Assembly: GCA_016840035.1 (NCBI GenBank)
Contig: JAEOTC010000038.1
Coordinates: forward strand, 1-64,000
Reading direction: 5' to 3'
DNA from: Candidatus Hodarchaeota archaeon
GTDB lineage: Archaea > Asgardarchaeota > Heimdallarchaeia > Hodarchaeales > Hodarchaeaceae
Length of the DNA: 64,000 nt
Shown piece by piece: positions 39,211-55,004 of the stretch. The notes under the pieces were generated by a model that was not told where the DNA came from, ran no database searches, and worked only from the letters and a program-made list of their open reading frames with translations. Both the position numbers and the translations under genes were made by a program. How positions within the stretch are numbered: position 1 is the first letter of the stretch; every line of letters starts with the position of its first letter.

Positions 39211-39286
39211 AAAAATGAAAAGAGATGCCGTTTAAACGGTAATCTCAATGCTTAGCTCACGTACCAGCTCTTTGTAGTGATATCTC
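39211..39286 (-). repeat. displaced tfb 3'-end copy 1
   Basis: Encodes RYHYKELVRELSIEITV* plus T-tract; 45/55 nt match to tfb 53991-54045. Confidence 0.9.
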
Positions 39287-40290: not shown

Positions 40291-40378
40291 AAAAAGAAAG
40301 GAGATACCGCCTAGACGGTAATCTCAATGTTTAGCTTGCGTACGAGTTCTTTATAGCGATTTCTCACGGTTACTTCGG
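40291..40378 (-). repeat. displaced tfb 3'-end copy 2
   Basis: 79/88 nt identical to 53971-54058; encodes EVTVRNRYKELVRKLNIEITV*. Confidence 0.95.
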
Positions 40379-41063: not shown

Positions 41064-41120
41064 AGGAGAGAATACCTAGACGGTTATCTCAATACTAAGC
41101 TTACGTACAAGCTCTTTATA
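41055..41120 (-). repeat. displaced tfb 3'-end copy 3
   Basis: Encodes YKELVRKLSIEITV*, identical in protein, with 7 synonymous differences in 45 nt. Confidence 0.92.
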
Positions 41121-42763: not shown

Positions 42764-42945
42764 AAATTCGGAATTAACTGAAGATACTTGAACTAAACAT
42801 TAATATGCGTGTTAACCGAGAGGACTGAAAAATTCCACATTTCTAGTAAGAAATCTTTTTTTTCCTTTATAGACTCGGGAGAATTGTTGAAACTGAAGAA
42901 TGAAACCTTGGATATGTGATTTAATCCCTTCCACCCAAAACGAGA

Positions 42946-43018
42946 AAAAAGAAAGGAAATCCCGTCTAGGCGGTAATTTCGACACTAAGTTTGCGTACGA
43001 GCTCTTTGTAGCGATTTC
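42946..43018 (-). repeat. displaced tfb 3'-end copy 4
   Basis: 66/73 nt identical to 53971-54043; encodes NRYKELVRKLSVEITA*. Confidence 0.95.
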
Positions 43019-45013: not shown

Positions 45014-45874
45014 TTGAGGAAAACTCGAAATAAGAGAAGTACAAGTTTACTATTAATTTATATTGCCATCAATCTTGGTTTAATTCTCCCAATGGGAGTA
45101 TCAAACGCACTAACCACGAATAGAACACAGAATGAATATACACGAACATTTACTTGTAATAAAGACGCGTATGTAGACTCTTCGAACCCAACTTCAAACT
45201 ATGCTAATGCAGATTTAGAGGTTTCAAACTCATCATATCGAGCAAGACGTTCTTATCTATCCTTCGAAATTCAAGACCTACCTTCAGATGCTGATATAAA
45301 AGAGGTAACATTCGGATTAAGCGTGAAATTCTTGCCTTATGATGACCATACCGTTCCATTAGATATTTGGAAAACAACTTACTTTGATGAAGATATCGTT
45401 ACTTGGGAAAATTGTCCTCAAAGAACTGTTCTCATGATACAAGTCGATATTGCTGAAAATAAACGCTGGAGCATTCCACTGGAAAACCATGGCATTACTG
45501 GAAATTTAAATCTCTATATTTGCTTATCCACCGATCTCGACAACTCTGCACCCATTACATTCGATTCTAGAGATGATATGTGGAATCCACCAAGAGTAGC
45601 AGTTACTTTCGAAGCATTATCCATCGATGAAAGTCCAAATGGAACAGTAGACTTAGTGATATTCCTAATTTTACTTGGTCCAATTGGAGGAATTGGATTA
45701 GCAATATTTCTAATGGTGAGAAAATCAAATAAGAGAAAAACAAGTTTTAGTATTGTATATCAAGAACCGAGAATTTCTCAAAAATCCGTAACTATAGACC
45801 AATTTTGTGGCCAATGCGGTGCTCCTCTGGATTCGACGAATGTTTTCTGTCCGTCCTGTGGGAAGAAACAGTGA
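45014..45874 (+). CDS. DNRLRE-like domain, TM helix and zinc ribbon protein
   Basis: DAYVDSSNPTSNY, RRSYLSF, VTWENCP, FDSRD..PRV; FCGQCG..FCPSCG. Confidence 0.8.
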   Translation: MRKTRNKRSTSLLLIYIAINLGLILPMGVSNALTTNRTQNEYTRTFTCNKDAYVDSSNPTSNYANADLEVSNSSYRARRSYLSFEIQDLPSDADIKEVTFGLSVKFLPYDDHTVPLDIWKTTYFDEDIVTWENCPQRTVLMIQVDIAENKRWSIPLENHGITGNLNLYICLSTDLDNSAPITFDSRDDMWNPPRVAVTFEALSIDESPNGTVDLVIFLILLGPIGGIGLAIFLMVRKSNKRKTSFSIVYQEPRISQKSVTIDQFCGQCGAPLDSTNVFCPSCGKKQ

Positions 45875-45914
45875 GGATATACTTCTTCGTGAGAAGTTAA
45901 AACTGGGTGAAATT

Positions 45915-47036
45915 TTGAATAGAACTAATCTCATGAAACTATTTCAGCTCGAGGATAACCAGGAAATTTTTGATTTAGCCCTTACTCCAAAATCGTGTGG
46001 TGGAGGTGACGAATTCAAACTTTTAGCCCTTTATGGGGATAAAATCATTGACTTAGCTCTGATCATTGATTTTTCAAATCAAGGATTCACAAATACGGGA
46101 GTAATCTCACCTGCTATTGATAGCTTTCATAATGAAGATGCTCTCAACGCACTAGGAAGATATCTAGAAATCGATCATTTGATGAATCCACTTGATAAAT
46201 CCAAACCGATCTCAGATGGTGATGTGAAAGAAGGAGTAGAAGCTCTTATAGGAGCAGCATATCAAAAACATGGATTAACCACATGTATCAAAATTGTTCA
46301 ACGTCTATACGAACAATCGGAATCTTTTTCTACAAAACCGGGAGAGGAAAAAGCTACTATCCTGACGGAAAACTTGGTAGGGATGTTACAAGAGTGGTTA
46401 GCAAGCCAAGGCCTTGGAATACCTGTTTATGAAGGGATACGAGTTGGAGGAACTAATGACAATCCATTATGGAGATGTCAAGTTTCATTTGAATATCATG
46501 GAGAAAAAGTCAAGGAGAAAAGTGATATTTTTTCCAATAAAAGACTCGCTAAGAAGAATGCAGCCCAGAAAGCATTGGTTGCATTAGGAATAAGGAAAGA
46601 TAATGTAAGCAGAGTTTTTGGGTCGATTCAGGAGGTGAAAATTCCTGAAACAGCAACTCAATCTCTCCAAGAACGAGAAATTCTCTTTACCAAAGGAGGG
46701 AGGGGAGGGCATTTTATCACAGGAGAGATACAACTAACAACTCAAACGGGTGAAACTGTCTTAGAATGGGCAGAAAAGAAGATAAAAAAGAATCCTTATG
46801 GAAGCTTGATTCTCCTAAGTGCACGTTTAGAGGAAATAAGTGGATCTTCTTGGTCAACTTCCTTGGAGGATCAGGAGCTAATTCTACTAAATATTGTTAT
46901 TGAAGACATGCCCTATTTTGAAATAGGAAAAGGAAAGTCAAAAACAAAAGCTAGAAAAGATGCTGCGCAAAAAATAATAAGATCATCTAATCTTATCAAA
47001 TGGATTGCTCAAAAATATTCAACCATACTAATCTGA
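45915..47036 (+). CDS. RNase III-like nuclease with two dsRNA-binding domains
   Basis: LALYGD, EGVEALIGA; dsRBD motifs LQEW..NKRLAKKNAAQKAL and GKGKSKTKARKDAAQK; start inferred from GGTGA SD. Confidence 0.8.
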   Translation: MNRTNLMKLFQLEDNQEIFDLALTPKSCGGGDEFKLLALYGDKIIDLALIIDFSNQGFTNTGVISPAIDSFHNEDALNALGRYLEIDHLMNPLDKSKPISDGDVKEGVEALIGAAYQKHGLTTCIKIVQRLYEQSESFSTKPGEEKATILTENLVGMLQEWLASQGLGIPVYEGIRVGGTNDNPLWRCQVSFEYHGEKVKEKSDIFSNKRLAKKNAAQKALVALGIRKDNVSRVFGSIQEVKIPETATQSLQEREILFTKGGRGGHFITGEIQLTTQTGETVLEWAEKKIKKNPYGSLILLSARLEEISGSSWSTSLEDQELILLNIVIEDMPYFEIGKGKSKTKARKDAAQKIIRSSNLIKWIAQKYSTILI

Positions 47037-47042
47037 AAATGT

Positions 47043-47114
47043 AAAAATTAAGGAGATACCATTTGATTGGTAATTTTCATACTAAACTTATGTATGAGCC
47101 CTTTGTAGCGATTT
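47043..47114 (-). repeat. displaced tfb 3'-end copy 5 (most decayed)
   Basis: AAGGAGATACC..GGTAAT..GAGCCCTTTGTAGCGATTT aligns without gaps to the tfb end; the stop codon is lost. Confidence 0.8.
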
Positions 47115-48185: not shown

Positions 48186-50042
48186 TCAGAAGGATTGGAA
48201 TCGGTTCCTTAAGACTGCACGAAGGTTTCTGAAAGAGCGAAACAGCTGCAAATTCGGAAGATGATGTTGATTGAACATGGCACGATTATCAAGAATTAAC
48301 CCTGTGGCTTGATCTACTTCAGAGCGAATAGCACGCCCCAAACACTGGCGGACCTGTGTGAAGAGATAGCGTTCTATTAACGTCCATTTAACAAAATGGA
48401 GATGACGATAACGGTTAAAATAGAGTCTATAAAGCAAATTGTACACCGGAGTGGGTGCTGGAAAGGGTAAGCCTATTAAAATCACCATTCGTACACGACT
48501 TCGGCCAGTTTGAGGATCTCGAACTTCGACTCCTTCACTAAACTTCCCGCCATAAACTGCAAGCACCACACTTGGGTCCCCATTCATTAATTCAGAGAGG
48601 AATGTAATCTGACCCTTTCTAGGTTCACGATAGAGAGACAGTTTTTCATTCAAATGCTCTTCTAAAAGTGGAAATAAGTCATCAAGAAACTCATAGGACG
48701 GGACAAAAACCCAGGTATGATCAGGAATTTCAAGTGCGACCTCCTTCACAGTTTTTGCACACCAACGCAGGAACTTCTTTGTACGATTACGATGAGAACT
48801 ACTCACCTGCGGATGAATAAATGCAGCCACAAGTAATTGCTGAATACGCGATTTAGGAGTAGGAACGTGGTGCAAATGGTACATATTCCACGGTTTTTTT
48901 TTTAATCCATAATAATGCGAGTAATATTTGAGATATTGAAAAGTGGCAGAAAACAGCACTGTCCGGGAGAACTGCCGATTCACATATTCAAAGATTTTCG
49001 ATGGATAGGGATCGAGTTGAACTAATCCTTCCTCCGTGTTCACCCAATATCGGCCTTGACGCTCAACAAAAGAGCGCACAGCCAGTAAAGCTTCTAGATC
49101 GAGAGGAGAAAGAGAATATCGAATACCTTTCTGATGAAGGAACGAATCGATTTGAGCTAGATAAGAACGATCAAGAGTTGGGGGACGTTTAACATACCCA
49201 TACTTTCGCTGGCATAGATTTTGCAGAATTTGCACAACAGGAAAAGCTCCGATTGACTCAACCAACGAAAGTTGTTTCCGAGTGACTGTAGCCTCTATTG
49301 TTGGCCCAAAATTGTGAGCTTCATCAATAATAGCGAATCTATGACTCCAACGAAAACCATAATCATGCGCTTTCCAGGTGAATCGAGACAGGGAGCGCTG
49401 GAGAGAGTGAGATTCCAAATATCCCTGCGGGAGTAATATAATATTAGCCTGAGGAAGCAAACGTCGGATGACTTGAGCAGGACAGCCATAGGGAGTGAGA
49501 AGCTCCTGAAAACCGGCAAATGATGAAGGACAGTGCTGGAGGGATATTTGAGGAAGAATCTCTCTTAGAGAGGATAACGGTAAAAAACGAGTTTTTTTCT
49601 TTCGAGGACAATGAAAACAGTCATTTTCAGGAGGTAAAGGACAGAGATCTTTGCTAGCGATCAAAGGAAGTAAGGTTAACTTGTCTGCCGGAGGGTTAGA
49701 GTAATATTCTTTCAGAGTTTTGAGAAACACTGATCTAAGTTGTGCTTTGGTTTTAGAAAAACACCAGAGTTGATATTCACCGGTCTTCATCAGATCCCAG
49801 AAGGCAGAAAACGCGGTGACGGATTTACCAAACCCAGTGTAGGCATTAATCGCAATTCGGGGATAAGCAGCAATTAAAGCTAGGACCTGTGCCTGACCAC
49901 GACGAAAGGAGGGAAAAGGAAAATGCTGGCGAATTTCAGGGGGCAATTCTTCATCCTTGAAAGACGAATGAGCCGCACCTGCTTTAAAAGCATCTGAATA
50001 ATAGATAAAAATTCCCTCAAGAAGGTTTTCCCGTATACACAT
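48186..50042 (-). CDS. Rad3/XPD/DinG family Fe-S helicase
   Basis: FRRGQ, AYTGFGKS, Cys cluster, IIDEAHN, SAT, GKFSEGV, GLPFP, QCLGRAIR. Confidence 0.9.
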   Translation of the reverse strand: MCIRENLLEGIFIYYSDAFKAGAAHSSFKDEELPPEIRQHFPFPSFRRGQAQVLALIAAYPRIAINAYTGFGKSVTAFSAFWDLMKTGEYQLWCFSKTKAQLRSVFLKTLKEYYSNPPADKLTLLPLIASKDLCPLPPENDCFHCPRKKKTRFLPLSSLREILPQISLQHCPSSFAGFQELLTPYGCPAQVIRRLLPQANIILLPQGYLESHSLQRSLSRFTWKAHDYGFRWSHRFAIIDEAHNFGPTIEATVTRKQLSLVESIGAFPVVQILQNLCQRKYGYVKRPPTLDRSYLAQIDSFLHQKGIRYSLSPLDLEALLAVRSFVERQGRYWVNTEEGLVQLDPYPSKIFEYVNRQFSRTVLFSATFQYLKYYSHYYGLKKKPWNMYHLHHVPTPKSRIQQLLVAAFIHPQVSSSHRNRTKKFLRWCAKTVKEVALEIPDHTWVFVPSYEFLDDLFPLLEEHLNEKLSLYREPRKGQITFLSELMNGDPSVVLAVYGGKFSEGVEVRDPQTGRSRVRMVILIGLPFPAPTPVYNLLYRLYFNRYRHLHFVKWTLIERYLFTQVRQCLGRAIRSEVDQATGLILDNRAMFNQHHLPNLQLFRSFRNLRAVLRNRFQSF

Positions 50043-50817
50043 GAGGAGTCAAAGGTTTGGAAGCTTTTTTCTTCCTCTTTTTTGACCGAAATTCTCGAAA
50101 ATAACCCCTGAATTCTACCACTTGATCATAGATCTTGTGTGTCCACGAATTTTGCCAGAAACGAATCCGATGTTCTTTGTGTTTTAATTTCGTAATATAA
50201 CAGAAATAGGGAAAGGCCTCCCAGGGGTGGGTTTGAAGCAACTTATCGAGATCCCCACGAAGAGTAACGAGAAAACCCATCTGTTTAAAGGAAGCGAGGG
50301 TAGCAAAACCCCTCAATCCACTCGGGGGAAGAAAACAGGTATCATATCCGTCAAAAACTAAAGCTGTAAGCATAGGATGTCTAAGAATAGGTTTGAAAAA
50401 TTCACGGTCGAAACTCTTGGCAAATAAAGTGTGTTTATCAATTCGACTTAGATAAGAGGTGGGAAGTTGCTTTTGAGATCGGAAATTAAGGACACGAAGA
50501 ATACGTTGAACCTGATAATCCTCATTGAAATCGTAATACAAAATTTGCCATGGTTTTGGACTGCTCAAGAGGCAGGAGGCAACGAGTTGAGCAAGAAACA
50601 GGCTTTTTCCAGCGTTTTCCGGACCAGCAATGATAATGGGCCATTGCCAGAACCAGCCACCTCGCCATGTTCGATCCAAAGACTGTAAGTACGTAGGGAT
50701 CGGTTTACGTGGAGGAAGGGAACTATCGCACGGAACAGCATGTTTAATAACTTGGGATAACAAATCATCTAAAGACTCGGAGTCATTCCTAGATGAGAGA
50801 GGTTTTTGAGAAACCAA
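50017..50817 (-). CDS. divergent RecA/RadB-like ATPase
   Basis: IPTYLQSLDRTWRGG, GPENAGKS, LYYDFNE, LVFDG. Confidence 0.75.
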   Translation of the reverse strand: MVSQKPLSSRNDSESLDDLLSQVIKHAVPCDSSLPPRKPIPTYLQSLDRTWRGGWFWQWPIIIAGPENAGKSLFLAQLVASCLLSSPKPWQILYYDFNEDYQVQRILRVLNFRSQKQLPTSYLSRIDKHTLFAKSFDREFFKPILRHPMLTALVFDGYDTCFLPPSGLRGFATLASFKQMGFLVTLRGDLDKLLQTHPWEAFPYFCYITKLKHKEHRIRFWQNSWTHKIYDQVVEFRGYFREFRSKKRKKKASKPLTPHVYTGKPS

Positions 50818-50916
50818 AAATATACACCTTCCATTTACTAGATATCGGGTTGTCCCCTTTTATATCTGAAAAGATCTAGAAAATTGGAAGAGGACCCAAG
50901 CTCAAGTACTTTTGAA

Positions 50917-50923
50917 TATATAA
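50917..50923 (+). promoter_or_regulatory. putative TATA box for the structured RNA / LAGLIDADG transcript
   Basis: TATATAA just upstream of the hairpin-dense region; a divergent TATAAAA lies at 50858-50864 on the minus strand. Confidence 0.45.
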
Positions 50924-50944
50924 GGGAGGGGCAGAATCTAGTAC

Positions 50945-51815
50945 GGTTCTCTCTTTAGTACCATTCAGGCAGCTATAGTAGGTGAGAATTGTGAATGACC
51001 ACTCACAATGATCTTCACATACGTAGCGAAAAAGTGCTAGTCGCTAGCATTTGCCTTGCACTTGCTTAAAGAGGCAGGTGGATAAACAAACACGGTTGAA
51101 AACCGATGTTGGCAAGTGAAACACGAGAAAGTAAGAGGAAAACTATCCAGTTATGGCAAACTGGAAAATTTAGTCATATTTTGTTCGTGAATGAACTGGC
51201 CCTGTTTCCTCAGAAGAATCAGGTAGATAAGGTTCAAGAATCAGATCAATTAAACCTGGTTCAAGGTACGGATACGAAAACACAAAGAACGCGGAATCCG
51301 CAAAGACAAACAATAACCCCAATCCAATACCCACCAGTATACCCTCTTCAACTGGGAAATACTGGCCTTGTCGACTCTCCAAGGTGGATCGAGTCACACG
51401 ACAAGCAATTCTTTACGAAGGAAACGAAAACCCCACACGAAGGGAAAATGGAACAATACCCAAAAGAACAACACCAGCGTTTAATAACAAAACAACCATA
51501 TTCGACTTACACTCACGGTCAGGAAGAGACGCGGAAGTGTGTGTCAGTCAAGCGGAGTGTATCCACTCAAAACCATATCCAACTACCACGGGAAAGCATC
51601 CCTCCCAAGGGTGCTAGGCCTCAGAAGAGATGTGTCGTAAGACAGGTCTCTTCTGAGGATCCCACGAATATGGGCCCTTGTCATGGTGACATGACCAGGG
51701 TAGGTAGATACTCTACCCAAGGTGAACTGACGATGTCACAAACCAACCCTCTTCCTACGGAAGGAGGGGCGCAGGCCCCACTTCCTGACCGTGTCATCAC
51801 GGGGCAAAACGCCCC
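50945..51815 (+). ncRNA. candidate large structured RNA
   Basis: More than 15 consecutive hairpins with G-U pairs on the + strand, GUAA and GUGA tetraloops, A-rich linkers. Confidence 0.6.
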
Positions 51816-53214
51816 ATGGCCGGTCGTCCCCGAAGAGTACACCTTCCAGGAGGTGTCTCTTTGGGAGTTTACCAATCTCTATGTCCTGTTGGGCAAAGAC
51901 GATTGGATTACCCTGTCAACATTGTTGCAGGGAATCAATCTCTCGGCAATAAGTCGAGAGATTGGGATAGGCGTATCCGTCCTATCCAACATTCGAGAAT
52001 CCCCCGATCAAACGATCGCGGTGGCGAATCTCGAACATCTCTGCCACTATGCAGGGATGGATCTTTCACAGGTCGAGCGAAACGCGCGAGCGGTTCGTTT
52101 TTCTAAACGAGGTGACCTGGAGTACCTCAAATTTCCATTCGTCATGGATATTTATGCCTGGCGAGTCCTTTGTCACATTGCTGGAGATGGTAATGTGCAT
52201 TTTCGCAAGTATCCTGATCTCCGGTGGATTCAACTCCCCGAGCATCAGGATCCAATGCGGACTCTTCTATCCAATCTGAGTCGTGATCCAACAATTGATT
52301 ACGAACGGATGATATATCCTAAGACATTAGCTTATGCTATCTTGGGAACCATTCGAGGGATCACATTCCGTGACCTTCGGACCCCTTCATTCATACAATT
52401 TGTACTTGATTTACCCAGTCGCTATCGTGATTGGAAAGTACAATTCCTTGCCGCTTTCATCGTAGATGATGGATGTATTGGTGAGGACATATCTATTTCT
52501 CAGAAGGATGAACGAGTCCTTCGCCTCATCATGCAACTATGTGATCAGTTGGGATATGATCATTCCCCGCTATATCCAAGTAAGCGTGATGGAGTAAATA
52601 ACTTTCAGTTACGTCAGGAAGGAATTCAAGCCTTCTTATATGATGTAGCGCCCCTTTATGCACGTGATCCACTTCTAGGTCTCTGGCATAAGCATACACA
52701 ACTCTTAACTGTTGCTAGTTCTTTTTCTTCAGAAAGAAAACTAGATCAAAAGTTATCTGTTCATGTGTGCACCACTATCCTTCAGATTTTGGAGGATGGA
52801 ACTATCTATTCCACGGATGAACTGCGTGTTCATCCAGCTCTTCAAGTTTATCTTGAAGGGTACCCATCCTATGTTTTAAACAGAAGATTGGGAATTCTCC
52901 ATCGTTCTATGAATCTCATTCATGAGGACATCAAGAACAATGGAACCTCTTACCGGCCTAAACGCTGGTATGTTCCTCGTTGTACTACTTCAGAACACTT
53001 GATTCAAGTGTTTCATGCGAAGTACAACAATCGTGCTCATCCACAATCCTACAAACGTAGGAACATTACTTCTCAGATGGTAGAGGACGCCATTGAGGAA
53101 CTTAGTGCGCAGGGGGTCAAACCTAGTGCACTAAATGTCTCTCGTTTCATAGGGTGCTCGAAAAAGCAGCTCTATAAACGAAAAGACTTACGGGTGTACT
53201 TCATTGGTAAATGA
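51733..53214 (+). CDS. freestanding double-motif LAGLIDADG endonuclease-like protein with HTH domains
   Basis: VLCHIAGDG and FLAAFIVDDG; N-terminal XRE-like HTH (LSAISREIGIGVSVLSNIRE); C-terminal HTH; GGTGA SD at 51721 (frame open from 51106). Confidence 0.75.
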   Translation: MSQTNPLPTEGGAQAPLPDRVITGQNAPWPVVPEEYTFQEVSLWEFTNLYVLLGKDDWITLSTLLQGINLSAISREIGIGVSVLSNIRESPDQTIAVANLEHLCHYAGMDLSQVERNARAVRFSKRGDLEYLKFPFVMDIYAWRVLCHIAGDGNVHFRKYPDLRWIQLPEHQDPMRTLLSNLSRDPTIDYERMIYPKTLAYAILGTIRGITFRDLRTPSFIQFVLDLPSRYRDWKVQFLAAFIVDDGCIGEDISISQKDERVLRLIMQLCDQLGYDHSPLYPSKRDGVNNFQLRQEGIQAFLYDVAPLYARDPLLGLWHKHTQLLTVASSFSSERKLDQKLSVHVCTTILQILEDGTIYSTDELRVHPALQVYLEGYPSYVLNRRLGILHRSMNLIHEDIKNNGTSYRPKRWYVPRCTTSEHLIQVFHAKYNNRAHPQSYKRRNITSQMVEDAIEELSAQGVKPSALNVSRFIGCSKKQLYKRKDLRVYFIGK

Positions 53215-53250
53215 AGTCACTCCCATTCCCTTCTCTTTTTTTTTCATAAC

Positions 53251-53838
53251 TCAAACTTGATACGGAAGACTAGTTTCATCAAGTTTTACGATCTCATTTC
53301 CACTAATTGACCATGAGAACCTCTCACATGCTTCTTTGAAAACAACATCTGTTACTAGAAAATCCAGAATTCCTGAATCTTTACTAGAATCAAGGATTTT
53401 AACTTTTTTCCTTCGGGTCCACTCACGAAGTATTTTGATATCCTCAGTTAACTCCATAAGTTTTTGGAGAATCTCATCAAGAGGACGACATACATCAATT
53501 GCATATTTAAACGAGATGTAAAAGTGAATTGGTGTGCGAAACAAAGAGACTGGAGATTCTTGAGTAAAATGGTTTTTAATGGAATTTTCCACAAATCTCG
53601 CATCTTGAAGAGAGAGGGGGTTTTTTAGAGATCGAGATCCGTCATTATTCTTTTTGATTTGCACAATTACTTCTTGAACGAAGTCCTGGTTATTTATTGA
53701 AGGAAATCCATCAAAAATTAGTCTTTTACTTGTAAAATCAGTATAGTTTATTTGTGTGTATCTATCCTTGATTGCAAGAGGTGTATCTGAATAATTTTGA
53801 TTTTTAATCTCATTAGGGTTTTGTTCATCTTCTTCCAC
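53251..53838 (-). CDS. hypothetical protein
   Basis: 195 aa ORF with GGAGG SD. Confidence 0.7.
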   Translation of the reverse strand: MEEDEQNPNEIKNQNYSDTPLAIKDRYTQINYTDFTSKRLIFDGFPSINNQDFVQEVIVQIKKNNDGSRSLKNPLSLQDARFVENSIKNHFTQESPVSLFRTPIHFYISFKYAIDVCRPLDEILQKLMELTEDIKILREWTRRKKVKILDSSKDSGILDFLVTDVVFKEACERFSWSISGNEIVKLDETSLPYQV

Positions 53839-53969: not shown

Positions 53970-53981
53970 AAAAAAGAAAGG
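53970..53981 (-). terminator. T-rich terminator of tfb
   Basis: CCTTTCTTTTTT just after the tfb stop; a similar tract is kept in each repeat copy. Confidence 0.55.
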
Positions 53982-53990
53982 AGATCCCGT

Positions 53991-55004
53991 CTAGACGGTA
54001 ATCTCGATACTTAGCTTGCGCACGAGCTCTTTGTAGCGATTTCTCACGGTAACTTCGGTAACGTGAGCGACCTCTGATATTTCCCGCTGTGTCCGTCGTT
54101 CTCCGTTGATTATCCCGCTGATATAGATTGCTGCGGCTGCTAGGCCGGTTGGGTCTTTTCCTGCTGTCAATCCTCCGGCTTTTGCGCGTTTTAGGATTTC
54201 TGCGGCTTTTCGTTGACAGACTCCTGATAATCGTAATTCTGTCCCAAACCGTACCAGATAATCTATGGGGCTTGCGAGGGGGATATTCAGGTATAATTCC
54301 CTGAGTAATAAGCGGTAACATCTGCCCAGTTCTTTTTTTGTGATTCGTGATTCTTTTGCGATCTCATCGAGTGTTCTGGGTACCCGGCGTACGCGTGCGG
54401 ATGCATAGATGGTTGCTGCGACCATCGCTTCTATGGAGCGTCCTCGTACTAAGCGTTTTTCTATGGCTTTTCGATAGATTATTGCTGAGGTTTCTTTTAC
54501 ATTGCGTGGTATTCCGAGTTGTGAGGCTAATCGATCCATTTCTGACATGGCGAATGCCAGATTTCTATCCATTGAGCTATGGACTCTTGTTCGTATTTGC
54601 CATTTTCGTAATCGATAGATTTGTGCTCGTCGTGAGGCTGTGAGTTTGTTGCCAAACGTATCTCGGTTTTCATATCCTATAATTGTTGATAAGCCTTTAT
54701 CATGTACTGAAAATGTGCTAGGTGATCCTACACGACTGCGTTTATCGCGTTCTTCGCTATTGAACGCACGCCATTCGGGTCCTTCATCTATTAATCGTGT
54801 TTCCAGTACGTAACCACATTTTTCACAGATTAGTTCGCCTCGATTTTCGTCGGCGACGATATCTGTGGATCCACAGTTTTTACATTCGAGGATTTCTTCC
54901 TCATCATCTACCTGGCCTTTTTTCTGTGGTTTTGCTTTTGCTTCTTTCATAAGTGCCATTCCTGAGCGTTCCTTCTCAAACTTGTGATTGCCTGGTCGGG
55001 GCAT
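53991..55004 (-). CDS. tfb: transcription initiation factor B
   Basis: Zn ribbon, GPEWRAF, RLRKWQ, GRSIE, GKDPTGLAAA, TQREISEVAHVTEVTVRNRYKEL. Confidence 0.98.
   Translation of the reverse strand: MPRPGNHKFEKERSGMALMKEAKAKPQKKGQVDDEEEILECKNCGSTDIVADENRGELICEKCGYVLETRLIDEGPEWRAFNSEERDKRSRVGSPSTFSVHDKGLSTIIGYENRDTFGNKLTASRRAQIYRLRKWQIRTRVHSSMDRNLAFAMSEMDRLASQLGIPRNVKETSAIIYRKAIEKRLVRGRSIEAMVAATIYASARVRRVPRTLDEIAKESRITKKELGRCYRLLLRELYLNIPLASPIDYLVRFGTELRLSGVCQRKAAEILKRAKAGGLTAGKDPTGLAAAAIYISGIINGERRTQREISEVAHVTEVTVRNRYKELVRKLSIEITV

Follow-up and report, generated by a model that had tools for sequence, protein, structure and literature searches.

A large conserved RNA fold, stop-free in the frame of the LAGLIDADG endonuclease gene that it leads into, in Hodarchaeales archaea

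The 64-kb stretch of DNA analysed here (hereafter the window), from a Candidatus Hodarchaeota archaeon whose genome has ~35% G+C, carries a hairpin-dense region at positions 50945-51815 that leads into a gene for a LAGLIDADG endonuclease, close to the 3' end of tfb, a gene for a general transcription factor. The region is a real folded RNA that is conserved, had not been catalogued before and represents a new family. It appears to form the 5' part of the nuclease messenger itself and is open throughout in the nuclease frame, the conserved entity apparently being the nucleic acid and not the peptide that it would encode. We favour, with middling confidence, the interpretation that this RNA domain acts in cis, gating the translation of a selfish endonuclease and stabilising its mRNA. 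In the literature we found no description of the hairpin RNA, nor of a tfb-linked LAGLIDADG element in Asgard archaea.

On the + strand, region 50945-51815 folded to -292 kcal/mol compared to -225 +/- 8 kcal/mol for dinucleotide shuffles (z = -8.1), and the opposite (-) strand reached z = -6.7 in the same comparison. A sequence-only reading of the window had proposed a + strand RNA, which is indicated by U-G pairs in conserved helices together with the promoter and terminator described below. Every stem listed in that reading was located, including ATTGTGA/TCACAAT, AAGTGCTAG/CTAGCATTT (51032-51052), CACTTGC/GCAGGTG (51059-51080), CCAGTAT/ATACTGG, CTTGTCG/CGACAAG (51367-51405), AGCATCC/GGGTGCT, a 12-bp stem with a GTAA loop (51619-51658) and GTCATG-GTGA-CATGAC. 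It had recognised no signature of a group I or group II intron, RNase P, signal recognition particle or ribosomal RNA, in agreement with the Rfam search, where no known family was matched at gathering scores across the whole window, nor within 50700-53400 when E <= 10 was allowed, nor at E <= 1 when five other homologous loci were searched. No tRNA or tmRNA was detected in the window. A dispersed in-frame palindromic repeat (RPE/MITE-like) was considered and rejected, the 901-nt region being single-copy in the 4.3-Mb assembly.

The helices of loci homologous to 50945-51815, long-range ones included, covaried across 12 loci; four groups of loci are distinguished here, the window belonging to group 1. 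RNAalifold predicted 245 pairs for the three closest loci (window, L001 and L029), of which 35 were doubly compensated, and a second group (four loci) gave 137 consensus pairs with 15 compensated. The RNA ranges from ~555 to 860 nt among loci (~800 nt in the window), with peripheral hairpins gained or lost around a common core. The central multi-branch domain (Table 1) had 24 consensus pairs over the 12 loci, in which 94.8% of cells were paired compared to 27-46% when the pairing partners were slid by 1-3 columns. Both sides had changed in 15 of the 24 pairs (0-7 in the slid controls) and the covariation score was 0.55 (<= 0.15 in the slid controls). The 8-bp long-range helix closing this domain was 97.9% paired over the 12 loci, with four pairs changed on both sides (AU:7/GC:5, CG:9/UA:3 and others). 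Conservation is highest in block B, which contains a hairpin with a loop that is near-invariant among loci; 8 of the 11 stem pairs have changed on both sides. A covariance model of block B (R1, 89 positions) gave scores of 78-91 bits for each of the 12 loci that bear the RNA, and three extra copies reached 40-56 bits.

In the 5' leader, the hairpin at 51058-51081 covaried in all four groups (CACUUGC/GCAGGUG compared to CCCCCUGC/GGUAGGGG). Within the 3' domain, hairpins at 51617-51660 (20 bp), 51596-51614 and 51675-51700 each contained three to four doubly compensated pairs. The 13-bp helix closing the 3' domain uses as its 3' strand the codons for the invariant L-P-D-R residues of the nuclease; among the three closest loci it showed only a change on one side, in a single locus, and it is without covariation support.

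The TATA box that had been noted upstream of the hairpin region was found (TATATAAGG; Table 1). A TATAAAAGG-like box (pattern TAT[AT][AT]AAG[GT]) lies at a constant distance from the first conserved RNA nucleotides in 11 of the 11 loci that have upstream sequence, and transcription would start at ~50945-50948, where RNA conservation starts. At the other end, a TCCC...T8-10 tract sits 20-35 nt past the stop codon in all 11 loci. No conserved structure or hairpin was found 3' of the open reading frame (ORF) after the T-tract, and z was ~0 beyond 53245. These signals point to one transcription unit of ~2.3 kb, bounded by the TATA box at 50917 and the T-tract at 53244, with both transcript ends putative. 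The earlier view of a large structured + strand RNA tied to the LAGLIDADG gene is borne out, as this RNA is new, covaries and has its own TATA box, but that of a separate non-coding RNA leading into the gene is not, since the RNA makes up the first third of the promoter-to-terminator transcript that also contains the nuclease gene, in whose frame it has no stops.

The ORF P0001 (51106-53214, + strand, 702 codons) overlaps most of the supposed non-coding RNA, and an in-frame stop (51097-51099) precedes its AUG. We compared 13 loci over the 645 nt preceding the LPPLPxRAI motif of the nuclease (core start 51781). Frame 0 contained no stop over ~215 codons in eight loci, compared to 8-16 stops in each of frames 1 and 2, and the extension in the window contained 0 stops in frame 0 compared to 10 and 8 in the other two frames. 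The frame opens 1-15 codons ahead of the aligned AUG (51106 in the window) in most loci, reaching ~50 codons further upstream in L001 and L005, and this upstream AUG is preceded by a Shine-Dalgarno (SD) sequence in groups 3 and 4. Between the window and L001, substitutions at the three codon positions numbered 68/71/70 in the extension compared to 60/32/137 in the core; other pairs gave 48/48/51 and 33/32/32 in the extension. The ratio of non-synonymous to synonymous substitution rates (dN/dS) was 0.6-0.95 in the extension compared to 0.16-0.25 in the core (core values from pairs L001/L029 and L003/L030), and synonymous divergence was smaller in the extension than in the core. Nucleotide conservation in two pairs was 85% in the extension compared to 70% in the core, and 84% compared to 62%. 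In AlphaFold2 models built from the family alignment, residues 1-221 had a predicted local distance difference test score (pLDDT) of 27-35 and no secondary structure, with most of the rest at 70-95. The extension had no Pfam match. A folded N-terminal protein domain was rejected on the dN/dS, the even codon positions, the pLDDT and the lack of a Pfam match. The stop-free frame, the absence of codon-position bias, the dN/dS and the pLDDT together indicate a stretch that is kept readable by ribosomes and in which the nucleic acid, not the peptide, is conserved.

The conserved AUG and the strictly open frame could also be read as the mark of a genuine protein extension, in which the 209 N-terminal residues are a disordered, basic part of the endonuclease with a function of their own, the RNA structure being of secondary importance. 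In composition the peptide is hydrophilic and, for the most part, basic (isoelectric point 8.9-10.1 in six of eight loci) and short motifs recur in it (SPRIG..EQ..PRE). The isoelectric point falls, however, to 6.5-6.7 in group 3, the motifs coincide with RNA loops while the stems alter amino acids through compensatory pairs, and synonymous sites are constrained as much as non-synonymous ones; with the dN/dS, the lack of codon-position bias and a pLDDT of ~30 also against it, we consider this reading very improbable. Gene callers annotate 600-750-residue hypothetical proteins at these loci (P0002, P0006, P0008, P0026 and others), the first 120-230 residues of which are structured RNA read as codons. 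P0009 (499 aa) was called short despite a frame that is open to the contig edge.

The sequence-only reading had placed the start codon at 51733. This start is genuine, with its SD and AUG conserved, but it is not the sole start, as the upstream AUG is conserved as well. An internal SD (GGUGA/GAGGU) 7-8 nt from an AUG and 13-17 codons before the conserved core was present in 9 of 11 loci, and the remaining two appear, as judged by eye, to use GUG as the internal start. Short homologues begin at the internal start. The predicted pairing probability of the internal SD was 0.58-1.0 in the nine loci, and in group 4 the SD is predicted to pair with a local anti-SD (CACCUCA/UGAGGUG). By these predictions the SD is paired in a conserved helix, the arrangement of a sequestered ribosome-binding site (RBS).

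Under the cis-acting gate that we favour, the nuclease's own RBS (AGGUGA and AUG 51733), inherited from RNA-less ancestors, would be buried in the 3' domain, and productive translation would come mostly from ribosomes loading at AUG 51106 and unzipping the fold while reading. The proposal that ribosomes must read in from AUG 51106 would explain both the stop-free frame and the freely drifting 209-residue peptide, and is the simplest account of the two that we see. The fold would throttle and time, in cis, the making of an enzyme that could cut the genome, and would probably also stabilise the nuclease mRNA. Both the sequestration of the SD in vivo and the gating and stabilising role are inferred.

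Several homing-endonuclease genes (I-TevI, I-TevII/III and segB of phage T4, mobE of Aeh1; PMC3014915) are documented to be controlled by hairpins that hide the RBS, and the archaeal RNA resembles these in the predicted pairing of the SD or start region in an endonuclease mRNA. The T4 and Aeh1 operators are, however, single hairpins of tens of nucleotides in phage genes for GIY-YIG or HNH enzymes, whereas here a 550-860-nt covarying multi-domain structure is joined to a LAGLIDADG gene in an archaeon. Unlike those operators, it also has a second upstream start, apparent in-frame read-through without amino-acid selection and hairpins across the ORF. Several points weigh against the gate. An RNA of this size, with conserved loops and long-range helices, far exceeds the requirements for hiding one SD, a task performed by single hairpins in the known endonuclease operators, and the pervasive conserved hairpins along the entire ORF are unexplained by initiation control alone. 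In group 1, which includes the window, the upstream AUG lacks a clear SD and is predicted to be paired (P ~0.8), which weakens it as an accessible entry point. Finally, block B also occurs before a different small ORF, which fits a role in cis and would also fit a protein- or ligand-binding module.

This architecture, with its near-invariant block B loop and its long-range helices, is complex and conserved, and its size and covariation are typical of functional large RNAs. It also speaks for a ribonucleoprotein (RNP). In this reading the LAGLIDADG protein, perhaps by way of its N-terminal helix-turn-helix (HTH)-like domain, would be bound by the entire transcript or by a 5' domain processed from it, and the RNA would serve as cofactor, scaffold, inhibitor or specificity factor in a maturase-like or omegaRNA-like manner. 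When they act as maturases of group I introns, LAGLIDADG proteins bind RNA; in one clade the RNA and the protein are always inherited together, and in two pairs of loci the RNA is the better conserved of the two. Against such a partnership, RNA-less homologues retain all catalytic residues, which means that the enzyme can do without the RNA; a promoter, and not an element boundary, marks the 5' end of the RNA; the stop-free frame is left unexplained; and nothing indicates processing. Nor was there a guide-like match: the RNA had no match of >= 14 nt beyond chance to the tfb 3' region (the presumed target), the tfb-end copies or other DNA of the window, and its only internal 13-nt complement is the helix 51514-51526/51781-51793. 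We regard an RNP as unlikely. A shade more doubtful is its fuller form, in which the 2.3-kb RNA would be both messenger and structural partner of the nuclease, the 5' domain binding the protein (or a cellular factor) as an RNP that controls where or when the tfb-linked element cuts and spreads.

The unit is similar to HEARO/omegaRNA-IscB and TnpB reRNA in having a large structured RNA beside or overlapping the nuclease gene of a mobile element, and the RNA of TnpB also overlaps coding sequence. It differs from them in having no HEARO match, guide segment or element-end position found, in being apparently translated through and in having RNA-less homologues. LAGLIDADG nucleases read DNA by protein contacts. 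A HEARO/omegaRNA-IscB system was rejected, with no Rfam match and an adjacent protein of LAGLIDADG fold in place of a RuvC/HNH IscB, and the analogy drawn with these systems by the sequence-only reading is without positive evidence. GOLLD, ROOL and OLE are large non-coding RNAs of unknown function on bacterial mobile elements, borne by bacteria or phages. The Hodarchaeales RNA is like them in exceeding 500 nt, in its complex covarying architecture, in its narrow range and in its association with mobile DNA; unlike them it is archaeal and lies inside an mRNA with an open frame, and it has no sequence or structure match to them in Rfam.

The nuclease core (~490 residues) was modelled by AlphaFold2 with a pLDDT of 87. 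The model contains two predicted LAGLIDADG helices in an alpha-beta-beta-alpha-beta-beta-alpha double domain, and Foldseek matched it to I-DmoI (E ~1e-4, TM ~0.6) and also to PI-TkoII and PI-PfuI. The acidic motif ends, G360-D361-G362 and D454-D455, were both invariant in sets of 20 and 29 homologues, and no Pfam model reached threshold for the window nuclease. The protein shares with I-DmoI, PI-TkoII and PI-PfuI the monomeric double-LAGLIDADG fold and acidic residues ending both motifs. Unlike those enzymes it is a free-standing protein of ~490 residues, not borne by an intron or intein, with extra HTH-like and C-terminal helical domains. It is presumably active as a nuclease on tfb-linked DNA.

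Exceptional folding did not end at 51815, as the sequence-only reading had it, but ran on through the whole gene to ~53245. Windows of 200 nt on the + strand from ~50950 to 53245 had z of -2 to -9.7, compared to ~0 on both strands of neighbouring genes. The ORFs of L001, L002 and L003 were equally hairpin-dense, with weaker folding in group 4 (L005, L016). In five homologues without the 5' RNA the ORF had z near 0, which shows that folding of the ORF is not a by-product of encoding this LAGLIDADG protein family. Five aligned ORFs had 421 consensus pairs, mostly local, with 91.8% paired compared to 38-44% with slid partners, and 40 doubly compensated pairs compared to 6-14, mostly between third codon positions. 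The ORF hairpins are maintained by compensatory synonymous changes. Single-stranded RNA phage genomes are coding RNAs folded throughout, in which conserved hairpins control ribosome access to internal starts; the archaeal unit differs from these in being a chromosomal DNA gene and not a replicating RNA.

Structure that spans the entire transcript and is maintained by synonymous compensatory changes could also serve as armour or decoy in an RNA-level conflict, the density of hairpins resisting single-strand-specific RNases or guide-directed silencing, or feeding double-stranded RNA processing into small RNAs. Genes of RNA metabolism recur nearby (an NYN/Zc3h12a RNase in L005 and L023, a Piwi-domain Argonaute in L003, an RNase III-like protein with a double-stranded RNA-binding domain (dsRBD) in the window). 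Such neighbours differ, however, from locus to locus and lend purely contextual support, and the specific architecture of the 5' domain and its open frame are left unexplained. We consider such a role quite improbable.

The resemblance to I-DmoI, an rRNA-intron enzyme, as the closest structure raises the question of an intron relic, in which an intron of group I, group II or the archaeal rRNA type would have diverged or decayed, its ORF being read in frame through ribozyme domains. Archaeal group I introns with LAGLIDADG genes exist (PMC6125680). A structured RNA of 600-800 nt read in frame before a LAGLIDADG ORF also recalls the intron ORFs of yeast mitochondria. ORFs of mitochondrial group I and II introns (the yeast cob/cox1 maturases) are read in frame through ribozyme sequence. 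Like these LAGLIDADG (or reverse transcriptase) ORFs, that of the archaeal unit is open through hundreds of RNA-constrained nucleotides, with an N-terminal junk extension. Unlike the introns, the archaeal unit has no host gene or exons, no catalytic core and no RNA domain after the ORF, and it has its own promoter and terminator. A group I intron was rejected because Rfam models found no P3-P9 core, no host gene or exons were present and the unit has its own promoter and terminator, and a group II intron because there was no match to RF00029 or Rfam and no conserved hairpin after the ORF. A divergent or decayed relic is subject to the same objections: no Rfam intron model matched in the searches given above, the unit with its own TATA box and terminator sits between genes without flanking exons, and the absence of an RNA domain after the ORF leaves no 3' core and no domains V/VI. 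Of the explanations considered here it has the least credence.

Table 1. Features of the RNA-endonuclease unit, in coordinates of the window.
Feature	Position	Strand	Details
TATA box TATATAAGG	50917-50925	+	in 11/11 loci having upstream sequence
5' leader	50945-51105	+	hairpins 50974-51025, 51032-51052, 51058-51081 and 51089-51110; RNAalifold with compensatory pairs
Leader hairpin	51089-51110	+	contains the upstream AUG
RNA domain apparently translated through (N-extension), 209 codons	51106-51732	+	from the conserved upstream AUG 51106-51108
Central multi-branch domain	51203-51426	+	closed by long-range helix 51203-51210/51419-51426; encloses several hairpins
Block B, most conserved element	51362-51450	+	hairpin 51367-51405 and 3' strand of the long-range helix
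3' domain	51513-51794	+	nested helices; closing 13-bp helix 51513-51525/51782-51794
Internal SD and start	51720-51735	+	SD AGGUGA 51720-51725, 7-nt spacer, AUG 51733-51735; start common with RNA-less homologues
Double-LAGLIDADG endonuclease ORF	51733-53214	+	HTH-like N-terminal domain, motifs LCHIAGDGNV and FLAAFIVDDGCIG, C-terminal helical domains
C/T-rich tract then T9, likely archaeal terminator	53215-53244	+	same TCCC...T8-10 tract in 11/11 loci

The last 490 residues of the protein have ~30 homologues, all from Hodarchaeales/Heimdall-type metagenome-assembled genomes and sediment metagenomes. Many are ~700 residues long, and others have 470-530 residues and start just before LPPLPxRAI. 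Within one GTDB genus-level group the protein is encoded by 7 of the 21 other genomes, compared to 0 of 61 other genomes of the class, and the RNA (model R1) was detected in 3 of 22 genomes of the same group, the window's own counted, and 0 of the 61 others. The RNA family is confined to one genus-level clade of Hodarchaeales. In a maximum-likelihood tree the RNA-bearing genes all fell in one clade (support 98/96), and under a midpoint root, used only for drawing, the other six genes, an outgroup lacking the RNA, were all short. Some short forms within the RNA-bearing clade are truncated by contig ends, and L020 retains a 17-bit RNA remnant only, with stops in frame 0. A free-standing endonuclease gene that already existed probably acquired the RNA in a single event, and the RNA can be lost again; the single gain depends on the root.

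Comparison of RNA and protein-coding parts gave differing pictures between pairs of loci. The 5' RNA of L003 and L030, and that of L005 and L032, was 84-85% alike compared to 62-70% for the endonuclease ORF, whereas the window and L001 displayed the opposite trend (5' RNA 68%, ORF 84%). Such a contrast may reflect mosaic evolution, or the RNA module may have been exchanged. Genome G052 carries two full RNA-endonuclease units (L009/L001 and L016/L023), with proteins 81% and 53% identical to that of the window, and paralogous units therefore coexist.

In seven loci the unit is convergent with tfb and separated from its 3' end by 0-1 genes, and a position beside this end is nearly always taken by the nuclease gene. 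An RNA-less homologue (L007:2470-3951) lies between separate Meth_synt_1 and Meth_synt_2 genes and not beside tfb, which indicates that at least two insertion sites have been used by the family. Downstream of tfb in the window, direct copies of the tfb 3' end and terminator (19-88 nt, 83-95% identity) are spread over 15 kb, at 39211-39286, 40291-40378, 41076-41117, 42945-43018 and 47096-47114, with the resident end at 53971-54058. These copies fit a serial insertion of cassettes at the tfb 3' end. A homing-endonuclease homologue is reported to have been co-opted by a Heimdallarchaeum mobile element (PMC8813620).

On the other side of the unit, an XPD-like helicase and a RecA-like ATPase are often present. 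In the window, overlapping genes for an XPD/Rad3-like helicase (Helicase_C_2, DEAD_2) and a RecA/KaiC-like ATPase (48186-50817, - strand) are divergent from the RNA unit; this pair recurs in L001, L005 and L033, with a raised G+C of 41-44% and folding z near 0. Between the helicase and the RNA-endonuclease unit of L003 lies the Piwi-domain (Argonaute) gene (L003:2203-3639). The RNase III-like protein of the window (45807-47036, + strand) has a dsRBD (Pfam dsrm, 1.4e-11) and RNase III domains that are below threshold. It belongs to a neighbouring cassette 4 kb from the hairpin-dense transcript, and is unusual in an archaeon and possibly relevant.

A second, diverged block B, the source of the 40-56-bit scores with R1, occurs in mini units at L005:4732-5256, L023:1365-1745 and also L038:1297-1755 (- strand). 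Here block B again lies in an open frame, followed by an SD, an AUGUCA start and a small conserved ORF. Two of these ORFs are 57% identical (E 1e-39), and the nucleotide identity of two mini units is far above that of the adjacent endonuclease genes. In L005 and L023 the mini unit is followed by the NYN/Zc3h12a-type RNase gene, which is on the opposite strand and immediately precedes the full unit. The mini-unit ORF and the HTH region of the nuclease are alike by eye (W-x-F, IR-x-N-P, L-x-x-LC, LD), with a BLASTP E of 6.6 that is not significant, and we claim no homology.

Few RNAs of more than 500 nt with covariation are, to our knowledge, on record, and hardly any of these come from Asgard archaea. 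The unit described here combines an unusual trio, namely an open frame that appears to be without peptide selection, compensated hairpins across the gene and a strict linkage to an endonuclease at the tfb 3' end. As a practical warning, the proteins of ~700 residues annotated at these loci begin with 200 residues that are RNA structure read as codons. If the RNP reading were true, RNA would be coupled with a LAGLIDADG enzyme in a new way. In the fuller form of that reading the unit would be a protein/RNA homing system of an undescribed kind, in the archaeal lineage closest to eukaryotes. The unit offers a natural test case for the competition between ribosomes and RNA folding on one archaeal molecule, and for the restraint of selfish nucleases.

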